Shown piece after piece: positions 8,054 through 18,368 of a stretch of DNA of 64,000 nt (positions within the stretch are counted from its first letter, which is position 1; every line of letters begins with the position of its first letter). The notes beneath the pieces are model-generated. The model did no database searches, had not been told where the DNA came from, and was given only the letters and a program-made list of their open reading frames with translations. The translations under genes were made by a program, and so were the position numbers. The stretch comes from an uncultured Candidatus Rokubacteria bacterium. GTDB taxonomy: Bacteria; Methylomirabilota; Methylomirabilia; Rokubacteriales; DASRDR01. Location of the stretch: assembly GCA_963708025.1 (NCBI GenBank), contig CAVPSB010000031.1, positions 1-64,000 on the forward strand, given 5' to 3'.

Positions 8054-9107
8054 TCGGGCCTCCTCGGCGCCCCGGTCGGGGGCGCCCGGGAGGCGGCCGA
8101 CCTGCCGATCGGTCTGCTGCGTGACCACGGTCTGCTCGCCCGGCACGCGCCGAGTCACCCTGGCTCTTCCTGTACCAGGACGCCGAGGGCGTCACTGGGC
8201 TTCAAGTGCCCCCGTCCTCCAGACAGGAGACACAGAGCGTGAAGGGATGCCCCCCTGGCGGCGCTCATGCCTAGGAGCGGCCGCGCACGTCTAGCGTGTC
8301 CTGGCCGACCCGCGGCTCGCGGGCTCCTTACGATGGTGTCGAGCCCCGTTGACCCGCCGGGTCTCACCGGCCCGACCGGTGTCCGCATCTGTGGACGCCC
8401 CGTATCGATCCGTGAACGCGGTGTGTCGCTGCGCGCGGGCCTCCGCGGGCCGCAACCTCGCCACCGAGCGGTGGGCCCGAGTGCGGCGCCGGCCGGGCAT
8501 GGCCCATGCTTGCGCCACGGCCGATGCCTCTGTCCTGCGCCGCCGCGCCGAGCTACGAGCCCCGCACGCCCGAGACGTCGATCCTCTATCGCACCGTCCA
8601 GGCCCACCTCGAGAGCTTCCTCGCCCGCACGGCGGGGGAGGACGGCCGACCGGGACTCCCGGGGTTCGTGACGCGGGAGTTCGAGGCCTACCTTCGGTGC
8701 GGGATCCTGGCCCACGGCTTCGCCCGGGTCCGCTGTGAAGGCTGCGCGTTCGAGCGTCTGGTGCCCTTCTCGTGCAAAGGGCGCGGCTTCTGCCCGAGCT
8801 GCGGGGGCCGGCGGATGACCGAGCGCGCCGCCCATCTGGTCGAGGCGGTCCTGCCGCGGGTGCCGGTGCGCCAGTGGGTGCTCACGCTGCCCTACCGGCT
8901 GCGGTATCGGCTCGCGTGGGACCACGGCTTGGCGCGCGCGGTGCTGGGCGTCTACGCCCGGGTGCTCCAGGCCTTCTACGTGCGCGGTGCGCACCGGCGT
9001 GGCATCGGCGGGGGCCGGACCGGGATGCTGACGGTGATCCAGCGCTTCGGGAGCGGCGTGAATCTGAAGAGACACTCATGGTACCTGCCTTTCTCAAGTG
9101 TGCGTGG

Positions 9108-11213
9108 TTATTGAAAGAGCGAGGGCTGCGCGGTCGACGTGTCCCCCGGCAGAACGAGCTCGCCCGTTCGGCGCAGGTGCTCGAGGATGCTGCGGATGGG
9201 CTCGGCTTGTAGATCGGCACGTCGAATCTCCCACGGGGCCCAGGGCGCGAGCTGCTCCACCTTGAGCAGGCCGGCGGCGACCAAGCGCTTGATCGTGGTG
9301 TCGCTCACCTGGAATTCTCTGGCCGCTCGCCCGAGGCTCAAGATCTCCGGATCTGGTGTGGCCCGAGTCTGGCCAGCGATGTGGTGATTGCGCCGCGCCG
9401 TGGCCACCCGCTCCTGGTTCCAGCGCTTGCCTTTGCCGGTCCGGCGCCCCAGCCTGTTCAAGACTCGGGCGATCTCATCGTCGCCGTAGCGCGCGGCCAG
9501 GCGCCGGATCAGCTCGAGATCCTCGAGCGCGGTGGGCCGACCCACGCCCGATCGCGGCTTTGGGCATCGTGAACGCCGTGTGCGTTCCCCCGGTCCAGTG
9601 CATGACGAACGTGAGCGTGTCGGTGGCCTCGTCATGCGTCACGATGATCTCCTCGAGCACCGTGCGCAGAATCTTCTTCTTCAGCTCCGGCGGACACGCC
9701 GAACTCTCCCACACCTCGGCGAAGTGTTCGCCCAGCGCCAGCACCGCGGCTCGCTCGTCCTCGCTCAGCACGGGCCCCTCCTGCTCCAGCTCGGTGAGCG
9801 TCGCCCGCAGCCGTTCGACTTCCGCGAGCGCCGCATTCCATCGCCGCTCCAGCTCCGCGGCCACCAAGCGGTGGCGCGCATCCACGGCGTTGTACTGCTC
9901 GAAGGCGCGGCGCGCCTCGTACTCCGCCTGCTTCGAGCTGGCGGCCGAGCGCGTCCCGGCGCGCGCTGTCCTTCACCGTGAGTTGCTCCAGCGCGTGGAG
10001 GCTGGCGCGCACCCCGAGCGGCGACAGCACGCCGAGCACTTCCTCCGTGATCCGGCGATCCACCGTGCTGCCCCCGAAGCCCAGGCAGTACCGCCCGCCG
10101 GCCTGGAAGTCCCCGAGGCACAGATAGCGCGCCGCCGTCCCGTGCTTGCCCCAGTACCGGACGTGCAGCTTTCGCCCACACCGCCCGCAGCGGAGCAGCC
10201 GCGCCACGAGTCCGAGCCCCGCCCGGATCGCGCCGGTGCCCTCCTCGCGCTCCTGCCGCAAGTTGTTGCGTCGCATGCGTCGCTGATGCTCTTCGTACAT
10301 CGCCCAGTCAATATAGCCCTCGTGATGGTCGGCGAGGAAGACTCGCGCGTCCGTCGGCCGCCGCAGTCGCCCCTGGCGTCGTGCGCGGGCGGCCGTCCAC
10401 CAGCCGGACCTCCACGGGACGGCGGCCATAGACGTAGGCGCCCGCGTAGATGGGGTTGTGCAGCACGTCGCCGATGAAGCTGAGGGTGGGAAGCTGGAAC
10501 ACCAGGTCGATGCGGCCGTGGCGCGCGCGGTTCACCGGCAGCTCGATGCCGTGGTCGTGGAACCACTTGAAGGTCTGCCGGGCGCTCCACGTCTGCCGGA
10601 ACGTCTGGAAGATGAGGGCGATGGCCTCCTGCACCCGCAGGTTGGGATCCTTCACGACCTTGCCGCTGCCGTCGGTGACATAGCCCGGCGCCAGGATGCG
10701 GATCAACTCCCCGCGCTGGGCCTTGGCCTCCATCCCGGCCCCGAGCCGCTGCTTCAACACCTTGAGTTCGACGACGCTCAGGGTGCCTTTGATCCCGAGG
10801 ACCAGTTGATCATCGAGGAGATTCACGTCGTAGACGTGCTCGTGATCCCCCACCAGCGTGTCGAAGATCCCGCACAGCTCGAGCAGGTGACACCAATCCT
10901 TGTCGGTGCGCGACAGTCGGGACAGCTCACGACTGAGGACGATGCCCACTTCGCCGAGCGCCACCGCGGCCAGCAGGCGGTCGAAGCCGTCCCGCGGGGG
11001 CGCCCCCACGGAGGCGCTCCATCCCAGGTCCGCATCGATGACGTCGACCTCTCGCCACCCCAGCGCCCGCGCCCGATCGGCCAGCGCGTACTGCAAGCGT
11101 TGGCTCTCGAGGTTGTGTTGGACTTGGCCGGGCGACGATTGCCGCAGATACACGACGGCCTTCCGGGCCAGCCGCTCTGCGGTGAGCTTAGGATTCGCGA
11201 CCACGGTCGTCAT
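9108..11213 (-). CDS. Large serine recombinase (resolvase + recombinase + Zn ribbon + C-terminal HTH); frameshifts near 10380, 9930, 9550
   Basis: AVVYLRQSS, SRLSR, NPIYAGAY, LRCGRCGRKL, LERRWN. Confidence 0.9.
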
Positions 11214-11358
11214 CGTCGGCCTCCTGTGTCGCCTGGTGCACGGCGATGATGGCGGCGGCCATCAGGCGCAGCAGTGCGGCCTGCACCTTCGACGGCAAGG
11301 GCATCGCTGGCGTTGACGCCGCGTGATCCACGCCGAGGTCGAAGTCGATCTGCTTCAC
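11188..11358 (-). CDS. 56-aa accessory ORF of LSR element 1
   Basis: GGAGG + GTG; KQIDFDL...VQAALLRLMAAAI; a similar ORF sits at the same position in element 2. Confidence 0.6.
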   Translation of the reverse strand: MKQIDFDLGVDHAASTPAMPLPSKVQAALLRLMAAAIIAVHQATQEADDDDRGRES

Positions 11359-11693
11359 GTCCACCTCCCGATGTCGGGTGCGCACCCGTTTGGGGGAGGC
11401 TAGCGTCATTCGATGACGAGGACGAGCTGCTCCGGACCCAAGAGTCCTTCACCAGGATGGCGACGGAGCAAAGTGCCCGAGCGCTGATGACCGCCTGCGG
11501 AGCGAGCTGGATGAGTGCGGCTTCGGGTGCCAGCATCCAGGTGGGGATCACCAGCGCCACACCGGTTGGATCGCGAACGGTCACGGCCTCGTCCCGCTGG
11601 CGAGACCGAACACCTGTCAGTTCCTGGCCATGCAACGGATGGAAAGGGTAGTGGACGACTGCGGAACTTATGGTTTCATGACGCCCTCTTGCT
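11210..11693 (-). CDS. Y4bD/DUF5372-like accessory protein body; its start codon is at 9079 across attP
   Basis: VHYPFHPLHGQ...IPTWML motif; frame open to the element end without an ATG. Confidence 0.7.
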
Positions 11694-12347
11694 CAACGTC
11701 CACTTCCACACGCTGGTCCTGGACGGCGTCTTCGCCGAGCTCACGCCGGGCCGGCTCCAGTTCCACGCGGCGCCACCGCCCAGCGATGCGGCTGTGGCCG
11801 AGCTGCTCGCCACGATCCGCGCACCGGGTGGGGCGCTGCTGGCGCGCCGGGGTCTAGAGCCCGCCGCGGCCGAGCCGGGCCCTCCGGACGGGCTCGCCGA
11901 GGTCTCGCCCGTCCTGGCCCGGATCCTCAGCGCCTCGGTTCAGGGACGCGTGGCTCTCGGCCGGCACGCGGGCGCCCGGGTCGGCCGCCTGGGCGAGGCG
12001 CCGACCGAGGCCGCCGGGCGCGCACGCGGGCCGCGCCAGGCCCACCTGGACGGCTTCGATCTGCACGCCAACGTGTGGGTGCCCCCCAACGATCGGGCCC
12101 GGCTGGAGCATCTGTGCCGCTATCTGCTTCGCCCCCGCTGGTGCAGGACCGTCTGCGGCTCCGGGCGGACGGGCGAGTGGCGGTCAAGCTGAAGAGGGCC
12201 TGGCGCGATGGGACGACGCATCTGATCTTCGAGCCGCTCGAGTTCCTCGAGAAGCTGGCGGCGCTGACGCCGCGGCCCGAGGTCAACCTGGTGCTCTACC
12301 ACGGCGTCCTCGCCCCGCGCGGGGCGGTGACATTGTGCAGCCTTTCG

Positions 12348-17338: not shown

Positions 17339-17384
17339 CGTCCGGCGCGATGACGCCGGTGGGGCGTCGATCCCCAAGGCGTGA

Positions 17385-17540
17385 GGTCCAGTGCGGGCGT
17401 TCCCGAGCTGTCCATGGTCGTGGTCAGGACCGACAATTTGATTGGGACGCCCACCCTCGACGATCCCGGGATCGTCGACGATCGCACACGACATCATGCG
17501 CCGCGAGTGCGCGAATAGATGGATGGTGGACTCATGCCCT
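17385..17540 (+). ncRNA. Putative bridge/seek RNA of the IS1111-type element (ends approximate)
   Basis: Stem-flanked loops contain gctgtcca/aatttg (target) and gacatc/atagatg (donor). Confidence 0.75.
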
Positions 17541-18125
17541 TCAGGGACCGGACCCTCCCGCGGCGGCGCGCCTCCGCGGAGAAACCACACCGACGCGGCG
17601 TCACAGCCGGGGCGGCCGATCCCGGCTCTCGACGGAGGAGGGTCCACTCGAAGAATCATCTTGACAGACAGACCGTTCTCATAGACGGACAGCAGTGTTC
17701 GCTGGTACTCCGTGGGACCGTGCGCCTGACGCGTGCGATCTGGCCGTACAGCGGGTGCCAGCCGTAGTGAACGGTGACCTGCTTCGCTCTCTCGGTAGAA
17801 TGTAACGGCCTCCCATGCGCGCTGGCGCCCACAGGTCGTGGGCTATGGTCGGGTGGCGCCCGAGGCCGCCGCCCGTGACCCCGCCGAGGCCCGCCCGGTT
17901 CCGCCGCCCCCACGCCGCAACTGGACCTGGGCGGCCCTGATGCGGCGGGCGTTCGCGCTCGACGTGTTGGCGTGCCCGCGCTGCGGCGGGCGGCTGCGCG
18001 TGATCGCCACGGTCGAGGACCCGCTCGCGGTGCGCCAGATCCTCGCCGCCCGGCACTCGGCCGAGACGGTCGGTCCTGGCCCGCCGGCCGGTGCCCCCCT
18101 ATGTCCACCTGACCTCTCCCGATAG

Positions 18126-18368
18126 ATCTCTCAGGGGGAGCAGGTCTCCCGGGTCCACCGCGGCGGGCCGGCCGGCCGCGTCCCTGCCTTCCTGCGTACC
18201 GGCGCCTGCATGCAGGCCGCGGCGGCCCGTTGCCGTCTCTCCCGGCAAGCCCAGATGCCGCGCTCTTGACGCCGCCCGCGCCGGTCGCGCAGCATCGGGG
18301 CGGAGGGGCCTTTGTCCGCCAGCCCCCCCTGGGGGCCCCCCACTGGGCGGGGGAGCGCGGGCGGGACG
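18126..18368 (+). repeat. 3' non-coding end of the IS91-like element (terminal ~25 nt missing)
   Basis: Matches 52372-52557, 20251-20320 and 29212-29279. Confidence 0.75.

Follow-up and report, generated by a model that had tools for sequence, protein, structure and literature searches.

Several known mobile-DNA systems resemble, each in a different respect, the elements analysed here. For the clostridial transposons Tn4451 and Tn4453 the excised circle is the intermediate, and the circle joint creates the tnpX promoter. IS607 is an insertion sequence with a serine recombinase as its transposase, while IS4321 and IS5075 target Tn21-type inverted repeats. In the sigK skin/SpoIVCA and Anabaena fdxN/XisF systems, an element encoding a large serine recombinase interrupts a gene, and its excision restores the reading frame exactly. 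The passages of PMC5704250 dealing with Tn4451/Tn4453/Tn5397 place recombination at a 2-bp core and list 'Numerous sites (GA)' for the Tn4451/Tn5397 group, that is, many sites and low specificity. That source also describes integrative mobilizable elements that are driven by large serine recombinases (LSRs) and whose attB lies inside traG or maff2 of Tn5252-type ICEs (Tn6104, IME_Sco1050_traG; PMC5704250). The enzyme of IS1111/IS110 elements is, in the relevant part of PMC11187229, an RNA-guided DEDD transposase.

As in Tn4451/Tn4453 (TnpX) and Tn5397 (TndX), a large serine recombinase is the only enzyme needed by the elements described here; those transposons, however, carry cargo (cat, mob genes), whereas the present elements are cargo-free, are highly site-specific and reside in the genes of other transposons. 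They further differ from the Tn4451 type in carrying DUF5372 and in that coding sequence, rather than a promoter, appears to be split across attP; the circle-made tnpX promoter is the closest known parallel to a gene that becomes complete or active in the circle alone. The traG and maff2 elements likewise have an attB internal to a conserved gene of another mobile element, but they belong to Firmicutes, carry replication or mobilisation modules and have an ICE conjugation gene as host; the elements here are ~2.6 kb, lack such modules and occupy IS91, IS21, IS66 and IS5-type genes in many phyla. Homing elements of the IS1111/IS110 type (IS4321/IS5075; the IS1111-attC group) also land specifically in a conserved feature of another mobile element--as does the IS1111 of the present locus, which sits in an IS4 inverted repeat--but their enzyme is not a serine recombinase recognising DNA that encodes a protein motif. 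IS607-family elements are, as here, driven by a serine recombinase; theirs is small, with an N-terminal DNA-binding domain and low target specificity, and is often accompanied by tnpB, in contrast to the LSR architecture (Resolvase + Recombinase + Zn_ribbon_recom) and strict sites seen here. Lastly, the sigK skin and fdxN elements interrupt genes whose function is needed and leave them by programmed excision; the present elements interrupt a transposase gene, their recombinases are dead, and the family behaves as a parasite of many mobile-element genes.

An initial annotation of the window (that is, of the whole 64,000-nucleotide stretch that was analysed) had claimed a four-level nest, in which an IS91-like transposase gene contains two LSR elements, which in turn contain an IS4 and, within this, an IS1111. 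All four levels are present, at or a few bases from the proposed places, each with an independent empty site as control. The features are:

8506..9066, forward strand: IS91-family transposase piece A, the N-terminal zinc-binding domain, ending GSGVNL (Pfam Zn_Tnp_IS91, 2.3e-19)
9067..11694, reverse strand: LSR1 element, 2628 bp, cargo-free (junction sequences; contigs skipping 2628 bp; ~2.6-kb homologous elements in L001-L080)
9077..9079, reverse strand: conserved ATG, 14 nt from the crossover and, in a circular form, in frame with the far-end DUF5372 ORF (sequence; frame test on relatives; like layout in the IstB and IS66 tnpB clades)
9108..11213, reverse strand: LSR1 pseudogene, ~700 codons in four frame pieces, 86-93% identical to P0006 (tblastn frames -3/-1/-2/-3; Pfam Resolvase, 9e-18, Recombinase and Zn_ribbon_recom)
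11188..11409, reverse strand: small ORF2, 73 aa, overlapping the LSR1 start, with a motif shared by relatives, L..LMA....AV...DD.R (ORF list; relatives)
11423..11694, reverse strand: DUF5372 ORF1 of the LSR1 element (..VVHYPFHPLHGQ..IPTWML..), without a start codon, its frame open to the element end (Pfam DUF5372, 4.6e-4, 20.6 bits, below the Pfam cut-off of 25 bits)
11695..12317, forward strand: IS91 transposase pieces B and C (NVHFH ... YHGVLAP); one nucleotide is deleted near 12135 (Pfam Y2_Tnp, 2.8e-4 and 1.4e-5; frames; alignment with the C12 copy)
12318..17813, reverse strand: LSR2 element, 5496 bp as found, 2617 bp minus the IS4/IS1111 insert (junctions; bridging contig; L081 and L083-L085 at the same site)
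12331..12333, reverse strand: corresponding conserved ATG in the LSR2 element, lying 14 nt from its crossover; read over the circle junction, it shares the frame of the element's DUF5372 ORF (direct sequence reading)
12348..14406, reverse strand: LSR2 pseudogene, ~690 codons, at least 3 frame changes (Pfam Recombinase, 2.1e-13; Resolvase, 1.7e-11)
14534..14827, reverse strand: C-terminal part of the LSR2-element DUF5372 ORF1 (..VLFCELPDG..LPAWMTD..; ORF list, homologues)
14819..14827 (left) and 17698-17706 (right), no strand: 9-bp target duplication of IS4, TTCGCTGGT (sequence)
14828..17697, forward strand: IS4-family element carrying IS1111, with an intact transposase at 14858-16093 (Pfam DUF4372, 1.9e-27; DDE_Tnp_1, 2.1e-26; copy on C34)
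16195..17687, forward strand: IS1111-type (IS110 family) element within the IS4 right inverted repeat (Pfam; empty site on C34)
17707..17813, reverse strand: N-terminal part of the LSR2-element DUF5372 ORF1 (..VTVHYGWHPLYGQIARVRRTVPRSTSE; ORF list, sequence)
17814..18125, forward strand: IS91 transposase piece D (HARWRPQVV ... CPRCGGRLRVIATVEDP ... stop; translation, HMM matches to relatives)

The IS91 transposase gene is thus cut twice, at GSGVNL|NVHFH by the 2628-bp element and at YHGVLAP|HARW by the 2617-bp element, each of which encodes one LSR. At both of these places, which are those given by the initial annotation, the joins match uninterrupted homologues: the LSR1 join reads GSGVNL|NVHFHTLVLDGVF where the uninterrupted homologue in L083 reads GGALNMNVHFHTLVLDGVF, and the LSR2 join, YHGVLAP|HARWRPQVV, has the exact length of such homologues (AP + 3 residues + W/H-R). 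Because the crossover falls within a shared CT, the LSR1 ends are defined to +/-2 nt. Metagenome contigs join 9063 directly to 11692 in 3 of 4 runs (the LSR1 empty site), and one contig, in 1 of 4 runs, links 12313 to 17812 with GC between and with one side of only 30 nt; at both sites the joints have short sides (25-30 nt at 90% likeness), and joints of this kind often come from other organisms. LSR2 shows 33% identity to the LSR1 family, and a 351-aa piece of it is 92-94% identical to P0121/P0122. The ORF2 frame is kept in six relatives of LSR1 (L001, L004, L016, L031, L042, L071).

At the inner levels, the IS4 inverted repeats agree in 21 of 25 positions, and contigs in 3 of 4 runs skip exactly 2879 bp, with sides of 58-68 nt. 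IS4 splits the LSR2-element DUF5372 ORF1 in two; intact homologues in L081 and L083 read ..VPRSTGEVLFCELPDG... That IS1111 lies inside IS4 was rightly proposed, but its actual place is the terminal inverted repeat rather than the IS4 body: it is inserted 10 bp inside the right inverted repeat, where the C34 copy of IS4 in the same genome is uninterrupted (CTAATTTG|GACAGCAGTG). It has a subterminal inverted repeat (ATGAGAACGG / CCGTTCTCAT) and a transposase at 16283-17338 that is spread over three frames (two frame changes) and matches Transposase_20 (1.3e-21) and, weakly, DEDD_Tnp_IS110 (24.2 bits against a cut-off of 29 bits). The order of events would be that the LSR2 element was struck later by IS4, with a 9-bp duplication, and that the IS4 right inverted repeat was then struck by IS1111.

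The best explanation of the region is that it is a decayed IS91-family insertion sequence whose HUH/Y2 transposase gene was struck twice, by two sister clades of one family of elements; the probability assigned to this explanation as a whole--the family, its targeting, the IS4 and then IS1111 hits, and the circle and DUF5372 steps proposed below--is about 0.85. As part of this explanation, the family would consist of widespread, ~2.6-kb, cargo-free elements comprising a DUF5372 gene, a second small ORF and an LSR of ~700 aa. Since relatives occur in many phyla at the same conserved transposase spots, the elements look like an undescribed family of mobile DNA living inside other mobile DNA; a literature search found no published account of it.

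Site choice was examined in the best 80 of at least 570 genome loci related to LSR1, 70 of which have at least one assessable flank and 50 both, and in the best 80 of a second set of at least 593 matches. Among the former, the IS91 transposase is broken at the HUH-coding site in 60/70 assessable loci, which is not a population frequency, since several loci come from one contig or one sampling campaign and are non-independent; both sides show the broken transposase in 44 of the 50 loci with both flanks. The IS91 HMMs used started from the transposase pieces in the window itself and were iterated over these very loci; Pfam, run on a sample only, finds IS91 domains on 50 of 60 flank fragments (28 of 30 sampled loci), with left flanks starting at Y2_Tnp profile position 13-15, and it adds L036 as an IS91 case and explains L033. 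These transposases are only 26-62% identical to that of the window, fall into two sequence flavours (..NL|NVHFH and ..LQ|HHPH.H) and carry host labels from Acidobacteriota, Alpha-, Beta- and Gammaproteobacteria, Myxococcota, Verrucomicrobiota and others. About eight of the 70 loci lie outside an IS91 transposase (Y1_Tnp, IS66/DruA-like, rve_3 and amidase flanks; several matchless). The four closest LSR2 relatives with readable transposase flanks (L081, L083, L084 and L085, of 92, 83, 59 and 55% identity) all sit at the (Y/C)HG(V/L)LA site; L082, 83% identical, lies on a short contig in which no transposase piece was seen. Neither clade, then, inserts broadly and without preference. These comparisons give strong support to the initial annotation's proposal that conserved rolling-circle transposase motifs are targets of LSR elements, and such targeting proves to be a trait of the family.

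At E<=1e-10 the LSR1 piece matches 4256 proteins and the LSR2 piece 2713, out of 8000 candidates scored in each case; family LSRs are ~690-700 aa long, and their longest contigs are typically 2.3-3 kb. One sister clade splits IstB within its Walker A motif (19 loci), another splits IS66 tnpB at F.F..RR.D.|.K.L.WDG (~19 loci), and further ones lie in IS66 tnpC, in IS5-type transposases and in another LSR gene; some wider relatives are within cell genes (a TonB-receptor-like barrel in L094, FtsX/MacB in L088). On a tree of 111 LSRs, 89 of them labelled with 11 target labels, target type changes 10 times, the minimum possible, versus 45-58 times in 200 shuffles.

The initial annotation had also suggested that excision could re-activate the transposase in the manner of sigK and nifD, and the LSR elements might accordingly be regulatory intervening elements whose controlled excision (as for sigK skin or nifD/fdxN) serves as a switch for the host or the IS. 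At the amino-acid level both junctions do bring back the exact reading frame; such restoration, however, is a by-product of conservative site-specific recombination. Frameshifts occur in both LSR genes, in the IS1111 transposase and in the IS91 transposase, so that a transposase revived by excision finds no support at this locus: the two LSR genes are pseudogenes, a search of the genome found no intact copy elsewhere (the only other LSR relic being at C29:133155-134650), and a transposase restored by both excisions would remain frameshifted. The junctions are clean, as had been claimed, but the host genes so restored are not intact. Long genes in the neighbourhood, of 1110 aa and 687 aa, are intact, and the frame breaks are thus not a general assembly fault. 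Metagenome contigs do include empty-site forms, but these are best read as other, unoccupied IS91 copies rather than as excision products. Nor is there a link to a developmental programme here, and sister clades within many other mobile-element genes, and within each other (L110), fit parasitism better than a domesticated switch. A regulatory role is therefore very unlikely: the IS4 transposase (411 aa) is the only open recombinase or transposase gene of the nest, all others being pseudogenes in this genome, and the nest is a fossil, not a switch.

It is very unlikely, too, that targeting is absent and that the shared position reflects descent from a single ancient insertion, the resulting IS91::LSR composite having spread and diverged as a unit, mobilised in trans by intact IS91 copies. 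Four occupied copies (L009, L010, L011 and L023) do lie on one 698-kb record, and LSR subclades follow the two IS91 flavours, as co-descent also predicts. Against this, the L017 contig holds both an occupied and an empty IS91 copy, with identities of 99.8% and 100% for the two sides of a 2607-bp insert that has a 3-nt overlap; L083 has an LSR2-type insert yet an intact HUH site; metagenome-contig depth is ~200-240 for IS91 piece A versus 0.7-21 for LSR1; the unrelated IstB and IS66 tnpB genes are occupied by sister clades at one motif each; and inserts are base-exact with a 2-3-nt overlap, as serine integrases predict. Hardly any credence can be given to a nest wrongly stitched from repeated mobile elements in a draft or metagenome-assembled genome: the genome is a draft of 49 contigs, the window begins within an IS91 fragment and, by contig depth, all nest elements are repeated in the community, but each junction bears its own mechanism's signature (9-bp duplication, 2-nt shared core, insertion at a fixed inverted-repeat position), the left LSR1 junction also lies within separate Logan contigs (X3 record 19, 9036-9454), and like architecture occurs in 60 other loci from other assemblies.

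Under the preferred reading of a targeting family, each clade would integrate through site-specific recombination of attP with attB at a short core common to both, attB being the sequence that codes for a single, highly conserved motif in a transposition protein (..NL|NVHFH, the HUH motif, for LSR1; YHGVLAP| for LSR2), with the element always antisense to its target gene. Elements would move via an excised circle, and by settling at a conserved site of a gene that is multicopy and travels horizontally, an element may gain both a harmless landing place and a free ride. Neither a circular form nor an attP junction was seen in the 160 loci or among the metagenome contig joints listed, so that mobility, circle and split-gene logic all derive from comparison.

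The DUF5372 gene, found in every clade (82 distinct sequences; 32 of 36 match PF17342 at E<=0.1), appears to straddle attP. The 12 codons before its HY motif are free of stops in 87 contexts, and in 59 of these they also contain no ATG, GTG or TTG; with the start codon at the opposite element end, 14 nt from the crossover, the gene would be whole, and translated, only in the excised circle. Both window elements show an in-frame ATG across the junction, as do 30 of 35 LSR1-type loci (25 of the 30 at the conserved place), 7 of 7 IstB-type loci and the single tnpB-type locus; the frame test failed in 4 of the 35, 3 of which carry CTG at the conserved ATG place. An internal ATG in 9 gamma-type and related contexts makes translation from the integrated copy possible there. 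The DUF5372 protein may bind the recombinase near its zinc ribbon and bias the direction of recombination. Structure prediction supports such binding: the LSR + DUF5372 complex model scores 0.68, against 0.01 for the best of 3 controls, a mark that 116 of 157 solved complexes attain, as do 2 of 215 mismatched pairs (counts that hold only roughly, because custom alignments were used in the model), and the runs share at least 83% of their contacts, with a partner pLDDT of at least 75.

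An IS91-family transposase (tnp) gene is interrupted in the window by two elements encoding large serine recombinases (LSRs), the second of which contains an IS4-family element that contains, in turn, an IS1111-type element:

8506-9066, 11695-12317 and 17814-18125, + strand: IS91-family transposase gene, in three blocks (Pfam Zn_Tnp_IS91, Y2_Tnp)
9067-11694 (2628 bp), LSR1 gene on the - strand: LSR1 element, between IS91 blocks 1 and 2
12318-17813, - strand: LSR2 element, between IS91 blocks 2 and 3
14828-17697: IS4-family element, inside the LSR2 element (DUF4372, 1.9e-27; DDE_Tnp_1, 2.1e-26)
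16195-17687 (1493 bp): IS1111-type element, 10 bp inside the right inverted repeat of IS4 (Transposase_20, 1.3e-21)

Within the transposase gene, Pfam detects Zn_Tnp_IS91 in block 1 (2.3e-19) and Y2_Tnp in block 2 (2.8e-4 and 1.4e-5); once the blocks are joined, the HUH motif reads HFH (11701-11709), and at the place expected for the two catalytic tyrosines of the family there is one Tyr, in RLCRYLLRP. The pieces of LSR1 match Resolvase (9e-18), Recombinase (8.7e-6) and Zn_ribbon_recom (9e-6), while those of LSR2 (638 aligned residues, 33% identity with the LSR1 family) match Resolvase (1.7e-11) and Recombinase (2.1e-13), with Zn_ribbon_recom at 22.3 bits, below the 25.3-bit cut-off; all three domains are present in intact relatives of 690-700 aa. 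The IS4 element shows each of the features that define its family, namely DDE_Tnp_1 (in an intact transposase of 411 aa), terminal inverted repeats (21 of 25 positions matching) and a target duplication (9 bp, TTCGCTGGT). The IS1111-type element has 10-nt subterminal inverted repeats, 5 nt inside each end, and matches DEDD_Tnp_IS110 at only 24.2 bits against a 29-bit cut-off.

This region had been described in the initial annotation as a four-level nest (IS91 tnp, two LSR elements, IS4, IS1111), and the nest is confirmed by an empty-site control at every level. (Joints from metagenomes were found in Logan contigs--that is, in assembled sequences and not raw reads--of four runs, aligned at 90% likeness; a caret here marks a point of insertion.) For IS1111, an IS4 copy on another contig of the same genome (C34) has the repeat unbroken, CTAATTTG^GACAGCAGTG, without duplication. 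For IS4, metagenome contigs omit exactly 2879 bp in three of the four runs (the shorter side being 58-68 nt), and intact relatives of the LSR2 element run uninterrupted across the insertion point (..VPRSTGEVLFCELPDG..). For LSR2, one contig in one of the four runs joins 12313 to 17812 via GC, giving ..VLAPHARW.. with a side of only 30 nt; moreover, uninterrupted IS91 homologues at six loci read (Y/F)HGV(L/F)(A/G)P, three residues and then (W/H)R, by which spacing the join YHGVLAP^HARWR in the window is of exactly the right length. For LSR1, whose cut in the tnp gene falls at 9066/11695 or at 9065/11694, contigs in three of the four runs connect 9063 straight to 11692, or 9062 to 11692 through one C, giving ..GVNLNVH.. 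with sides of 25-30 nt; and an IS91 gene that holds an LSR2-type insert (at L083, a locus of an LSR2 relative) retains an intact HUH site, the LSR1 position reading GGALNMNVHFHTLVLDGVF without a break. Because short-sided joints below 95% likeness often come from other organisms, these metagenome contigs are taken to represent unoccupied IS91 copies of the community rather than excision products. Their summed depth is about 200-240 for the first tnp block versus 0.7-21 for LSR1.

The nest is a fossil. LSR1, which is 86-93% identical to an intact 700-aa relative (P0006), lies in four pieces in frames -3, -1, -2 and -3; the LSR2 gene requires at least three frame changes; and the IS1111 transposase is split over three frames. 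When both LSR elements are removed from the IS91 tnp in silico, a frame break remains near 12135, corresponding to a 1-nt deletion relative to the IS91 copy on contig C12 of the same genome. These breaks reflect decay and no general assembly fault, given that two neighbouring ORFs, of 1110 and 687 aa, are intact; assembly error is ruled out both by these ORFs and by the extra G that most IS1111 copies in the community metagenomes carry after 16468, where the window copy breaks. A search of this genome for an intact LSR of the LSR1/LSR2 family found none, and one further relic (C29:133155-134650, on another contig). The proposal that excision may re-activate the tnp is therefore unsupported at this locus, inasmuch as both LSR genes are frameshifted and the tnp is still frameshifted once both elements are removed. 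For the same reasons the nest is not a programmed intervening element of the sigK skin type, which needs an intact recombinase and a host gene that is functional on excision.

The preference of the LSR1 clade for one site is seen in its relatives. With a 301-aa piece of LSR1 as the query, 4256 proteins matched at E<=1e-10 among 8000 candidates scored, the best of these being 95-96% identical and ~700 aa long, with a longest contig typically of 2.3-3 kb, no longer than the element itself. An alignment of 28 such proteins served to retrieve, from one-genome-per-species contigs, the best 80 (loci L001-L080) of at least 570 matching places, and their flanks were compared with IS91 HMMs built from four window tnp pieces and iterated on six-frame translations of those loci. 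At least one flank is long enough to be judged in 70 of the 80 loci, and in 60 of these 70 an IS91 tnp is broken at the junction; for the 50 loci in which both flanks are assessable, IS91 sequences occur on both sides in 44, on one side in four and on neither side in two. A Pfam check, which is independent of these HMMs, detects Zn_Tnp_IS91 or Y2_Tnp in 50 of 60 flank fragments, representing 28 of 30 sampled loci. A separate Pfam scan adds two loci to those found with the HMMs: L036, whose left flank is Y2_Tnp, and L033, in which an IS110 element is located between the LSR element and the remaining IS91 N-terminal piece. Left flanks begin at positions 13-15 of the Y2_Tnp profile, and two right flanks finish with positions 1-18. 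The flanking transposases, which are just 26-62% identical to the window tnp, come in two flavours, ..FGS..NL^NVHFH (the window type) and HTW.Q.LQ^HHPH.HC, and the LSR is antisense to the tnp in all cases. Host labels include the Acidobacteriota, the Alpha-, Beta- and Gammaproteobacteria, the Myxococcota and the Verrucomicrobiota, among others.

The strongest single item is a filled/empty pair at L017, where one contig carries both an occupied and an empty IS91 copy (99.8% identical over 542 nt and 100% over 863 nt). The insert of 2607 bp has a 3-nt overlap (GCA), with no base duplicated or lost. This matches the behaviour of serine integrases, that is, conservative recombination at a short core without target duplication; in the window, likewise, CT is common to both LSR1 junctions.

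For LSR2, a 351-aa piece matched 2713 proteins at E<=1e-10 of 8000 scored (~693 aa, on contigs of ~2.6 kb), and, out of at least 593 places in metagenomes, the best 80 were taken as loci (L081 onwards). The closest relatives with readable flanks (L081, L083, L084 and L085; 92, 83, 59 and 55% identity) are all inserted at IS91 (Y/C)HG(V/L)LA(P/A); no tnp piece was found on the 1592-bp contig of a further relative (L082, 83% identity). These four, along with the LSR1-clade loci at the HUH site (60 of the 70 assessable), support the earlier suggestion that LSR elements target conserved tnp motifs. Relatives of LSR2 at or below 53% identity are absent from the IS91 YHG site, and their flanks cluster into a few families, named using Pfam. 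The targets other than the two IS91 sites are as follows:

IstB of IS21: 19 loci, split within the Walker A motif ..L.G(P/N).^G.GK(T/S)
IS66 tnpB (orf2): ~19 loci, split at F.F..RR.D.^.K.L.WDG
IS66 tnpC: 5 loci, by Pfam
IS5/IS1182-type transposase: 5 loci, split between DUF772 and the DDE domain
Another LSR gene, itself within an IS91 transposase: L110
Y1 (IS200-like) transposase: left flank of L140; L045 in the LSR1 set
Cell genes, in the LSR2 set: TonB-receptor-like outer-membrane barrel, split at about profile position 30 (L094:3704-8253); MacB/FtsX-type permease (L088:742-4833)

On a FastTree phylogeny of 111 LSRs (49 loci lacking a stop-free alignment of at least 560 aa having been left out), target labels could be placed on 89 of the 111 rows, seven of them from DNA flanks read by eye. 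The 11 labels require 10 changes on this tree, which is the possible minimum, and 200 shuffles gave 45 to 58; hence, each clade keeps one target. Because near-copies inflate such clustering, the tree shows specialisation and gives no rate of target switching.

Several other junctions were noted among these loci. At L110 (222-4837) an LSR element lies within the gene of another LSR element, between IS91 tnp pieces, so that the family is nested in itself. Two members of the LSR1 clade, L045 (4701-5627) and L048, have a different flank, which at L045 matches Y1_Tnp weakly (1.8e-5), the junction DNA encoding ..NHYHL..; the left flank of L140 (175-609) matches Y1_Tnp at 9.5e-28, and the flanks of these three loci may be HUH sites of Y1 transposases. 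At L149 (278-1067) and L151 (3-662), LSR relatives that are ~50% identical to the LSR2 clade, and that lie on the same strand as the tnp, directly follow IS91 ..CP.CGG...V(I/V)AFIT^, which is possibly a third IS91 homing site, at the C-terminal zinc ribbon. In several LSR relatives (L037:8116-9039, L062:4417-5190, L141:1508-2434 and one of the flank clusters), the right-flank ORF matches Pfam DruA (PF14236, up to 6.5e-45), and the left flank is an IS66 DDE domain or Y2_Tnp; the N-terminal region of the gene that they interrupt thus appears to be DruA-like.

Elements related to these in one respect or another are known. The available text of one source (PMC5704250) describes both LSR-driven transposons, such as Tn4451 and Tn5397, and serine-recombinase mobilizable elements that integrate within traG or maff2 of ICEs, and that of another (PMC11187229) describes IS1111 elements, a group defined by subterminal repeats, as having specific targets chosen by a guide RNA. 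Thus the homing of one mobile element to a conserved feature of another is already known, as is LSR transposition. Transposons of the Tn4451 type, however, carry cargo or mobilisation genes and have low target specificity, whereas the elements considered here consist, within 2.6 kb, only of an ORF of the DUF5372 type, a second small ORF (ORF2) and the LSR, and have a fixed site in 60 of the 70 assessable LSR1-clade loci. Literature searches returned neither a paper that deals with LSR elements inside the transposase genes of IS elements nor one containing 'DUF5372'; the targets named in the available text of Durrant et al. 2022 (PMC10083194) are Mg-chelatase, prolyl isomerase and competence genes, and the supplementary Pfam enrichment of that paper could include transposase domains. 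What is unmatched in the literature found is the combination of cargo-free, IS-sized LSR elements with the homing of each clade to motif-coding DNA of IS transposition genes. Relatives on RefSeq plasmids (~40% identity; for example, from Bradyrhizobium, Rhizobium and Sinorhizobium) are annotated only as a 'recombinase family protein' next to a 'hypothetical protein' (245 matching records); one of them adjoins a truncated IS66 transposase.

The ORF upstream of each LSR encodes the pattern V.V(H/Y/F)Y(P/R)(F/W)HPL.G...(I/L)P.WM....(A/S)L..L and is found in all clades, the loci contributing 82 distinct sequences besides the two window copies. Pfam DUF5372 (PF17342) matches 32 of 36 aligned members at E<=0.1 (best, 1.7e-8), the window copy scoring 20.6 bits, below the 25-bit cut-off; the start of the LSR gene is overlapped by the second ORF, of ~70 aa. 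No stop closes the DUF5372 frame before the element ends: the 12 codons ahead of the HY motif are free of stops in all 87 distinct contexts, and in 59 of these the same codons also lack ATG, GTG and TTG, nine contexts having ATG and 19 having GTG or TTG. At the opposite end of the element, directly past the LSR stop, there is an ATG 14 nt from the crossover, which comes into frame with DUF5372 upon closure of a circle. For the LSR1 element of the window, the circle joint ATGAGTGTCTCTTC-AG-CAAGAGG.. would read M S V S S A R G R H E T I S S A V V H Y P F H P L; for the LSR2 element, ATGTCACCGCCCCG-CG-GGAGGCC.. would read M S P P R G R P L H S T E R A K Q V T V H Y G W H P L; and for L017 the circle reading would be M S E G S A I V T H N T P S A D A T H V R V F Y P F H P L.

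This arrangement was assessed by a frame test that uses the reading frames of both flanking tnp pieces and that is, therefore, independent of the exact cut. The motif is present in 35 LSR1-type loci, of which 30 show an in-frame ATG no more than 45 nt from the junction (in 25 of them at the conserved place, which is occupied by GTG or TTG in three loci and by CTG in three); the four out-of-frame loci were all judged via a distant C piece. The same arrangement is found in all seven IstB-type loci and in the single tnpB-type locus where the motif was found, the chance expectation for a frame match being one in three. Inasmuch as the loci are related by descent, the weight of this comparison rests on conservation across clades with differing end sequences. 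From the reading frames, the gene is predicted to straddle attP and to be whole only in the excised circle. None of the 160 loci contains a circular form, as sought by way of a DUF5372 motif within 200 nt downstream of the LSR end or of terminal overlaps in contigs of up to 4 kb.

A confident AlphaFold2 model based on 36 DUF5372 sequences (pLDDT 92.2, pTM 0.64) predicts that residues 1-46 form a small beta-barrel and that a long helix comes after it. A PDB sequence search gave no match below E 0.028, and Foldseek gave none at E<=0.001 (the best being an SH3 domain, E 0.13); VIA-align superimposed the model on KOW domains of Spt5 (Z 5.6, rmsd 2.9, 46 residues) and of NusG (Z 5.5, rmsd 1.8, 44 residues). 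Such SH3/KOW matches are middling, and the predicted fold is best described simply as a small beta-barrel plus a helix. When a 700-aa protein of the LSR1 clade and the window DUF5372 were modelled as a complex, each entered as a custom alignment, the score was 0.68, compared with 0.01 for the best of three controls; scores this high occur for 116 of 157 solved complexes and for 2 of 215 mismatched pairs, counts that apply only roughly to custom alignments. Between runs at least 83% of the contacts agree, with a partner pLDDT of at least 75. The predicted contacts involve, on DUF5372, helix residues 51-75 and FHPL residues 7-10 and, on the LSR, residues 341-348 (the RCGRCGR zinc-ribbon motif), 391-411 and 479-546 (which include the invariant HW.GG.HT). 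The modelled complex supports binding of DUF5372 to the LSR. In serine integrases of phages, the zinc-ribbon/coiled-coil part is where recombination directionality factors act. Conceivably, DUF5372 is likewise a direction-setting partner, whose synthesis would report the physical state of the element.

Site-specific LSR elements are of a known kind; here they appear specialised as parasites of transposase genes and, unexpectedly, equipped with an attP-spanning gene. The broadest interpretation, to which a probability of roughly 35% is assigned, is that they constitute an undescribed, phylum-spanning class of autonomous, IS-sized serine-integrase transposon parasites, in which each clade homes to the DNA encoding the most conserved motif of one transposition protein, and in which the attP-straddling DUF5372, complete only in the circle, is a recombinase-binding factor, so that recombination takes its direction from the physical state of the DNA. 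The homing motifs would be the IS91 HUH, YHG and C-terminal zinc-ribbon motifs, the IstB Walker A motif, and motifs of IS66 TnpB/TnpC, of IS5-type transposases and of other LSRs. DUF5372 made from the circle would favour integration and, in the integrated state, the recombinase would act alone.

Such a class would add a layer to the ecology of mobile DNA, in which IS91, IS21, IS66 and IS5-type elements are inactivated at a motif that their proteins cannot change, and in which LSR elements ride with their host IS on plasmids and across phyla and may limit IS activity. It would also explain the many 'recombinase family protein' genes within IS pseudogenes in current annotations. The family would be a source of hundreds of naturally occurring LSR/attP/attB sets, distinct from one another and of known site, DUF5372 would be a candidate new partner protein, and directionality encoded in the topology of the element is a testable idea; all three would bear on the use of serine integrases as tools for genome engineering.

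Other copies and fragments occur in this genome. A second IS91 tnp fragment at the start of the contig (1-113) is 96.4% identical to 8955-9065 and stops exactly at the LSR1 crossover (..GGCGTGAATCT^); the sequence that follows (114-400) has no match elsewhere in the genome or in the loci. The stop at the crossover may be coincidental, or this junction may have been left behind by an LSR-mediated rearrangement. A third copy of the window IS91 type (C12:226377-226964, 84-87% identical) lacks ~83-90 nt centred on the LSR1 attachment site, with residues VIQRFGSGVNLNVHFHTLVLDGVFAELTPG missing. Directly downstream of the nest, on the + strand, is an IS91-like tnp fragment (18312-18623; Y2_Tnp, 0.002) whose HUH region is uninterrupted; it is overlapped by a minus-strand ORF (18099-19334), the N-terminal part of which is, by eye, aquaporin-like. 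The end of the nest as first drawn (18368) coincides with a G+C-rich repeat of ~46 bp, present in three copies (18322-18368, 20251-20296 and 29211-29256) that are 98-100% identical. Upstream, two overlapping ORFs (6468-8158, - strand) resemble two frames of one broken gene, and an ORF at 6660-7301 (+ strand) repeats the C-terminal motif of the 1110-aa regulator (2679-6011). Between ~6.1 and 20 kb, the window appears to be a graveyard of fragmentary genes. The second IS4 copy (C34:214580-216828, 89-91% identical) has an insert of its own, of ~880 bp, at the equivalent of window position 15381/15382.
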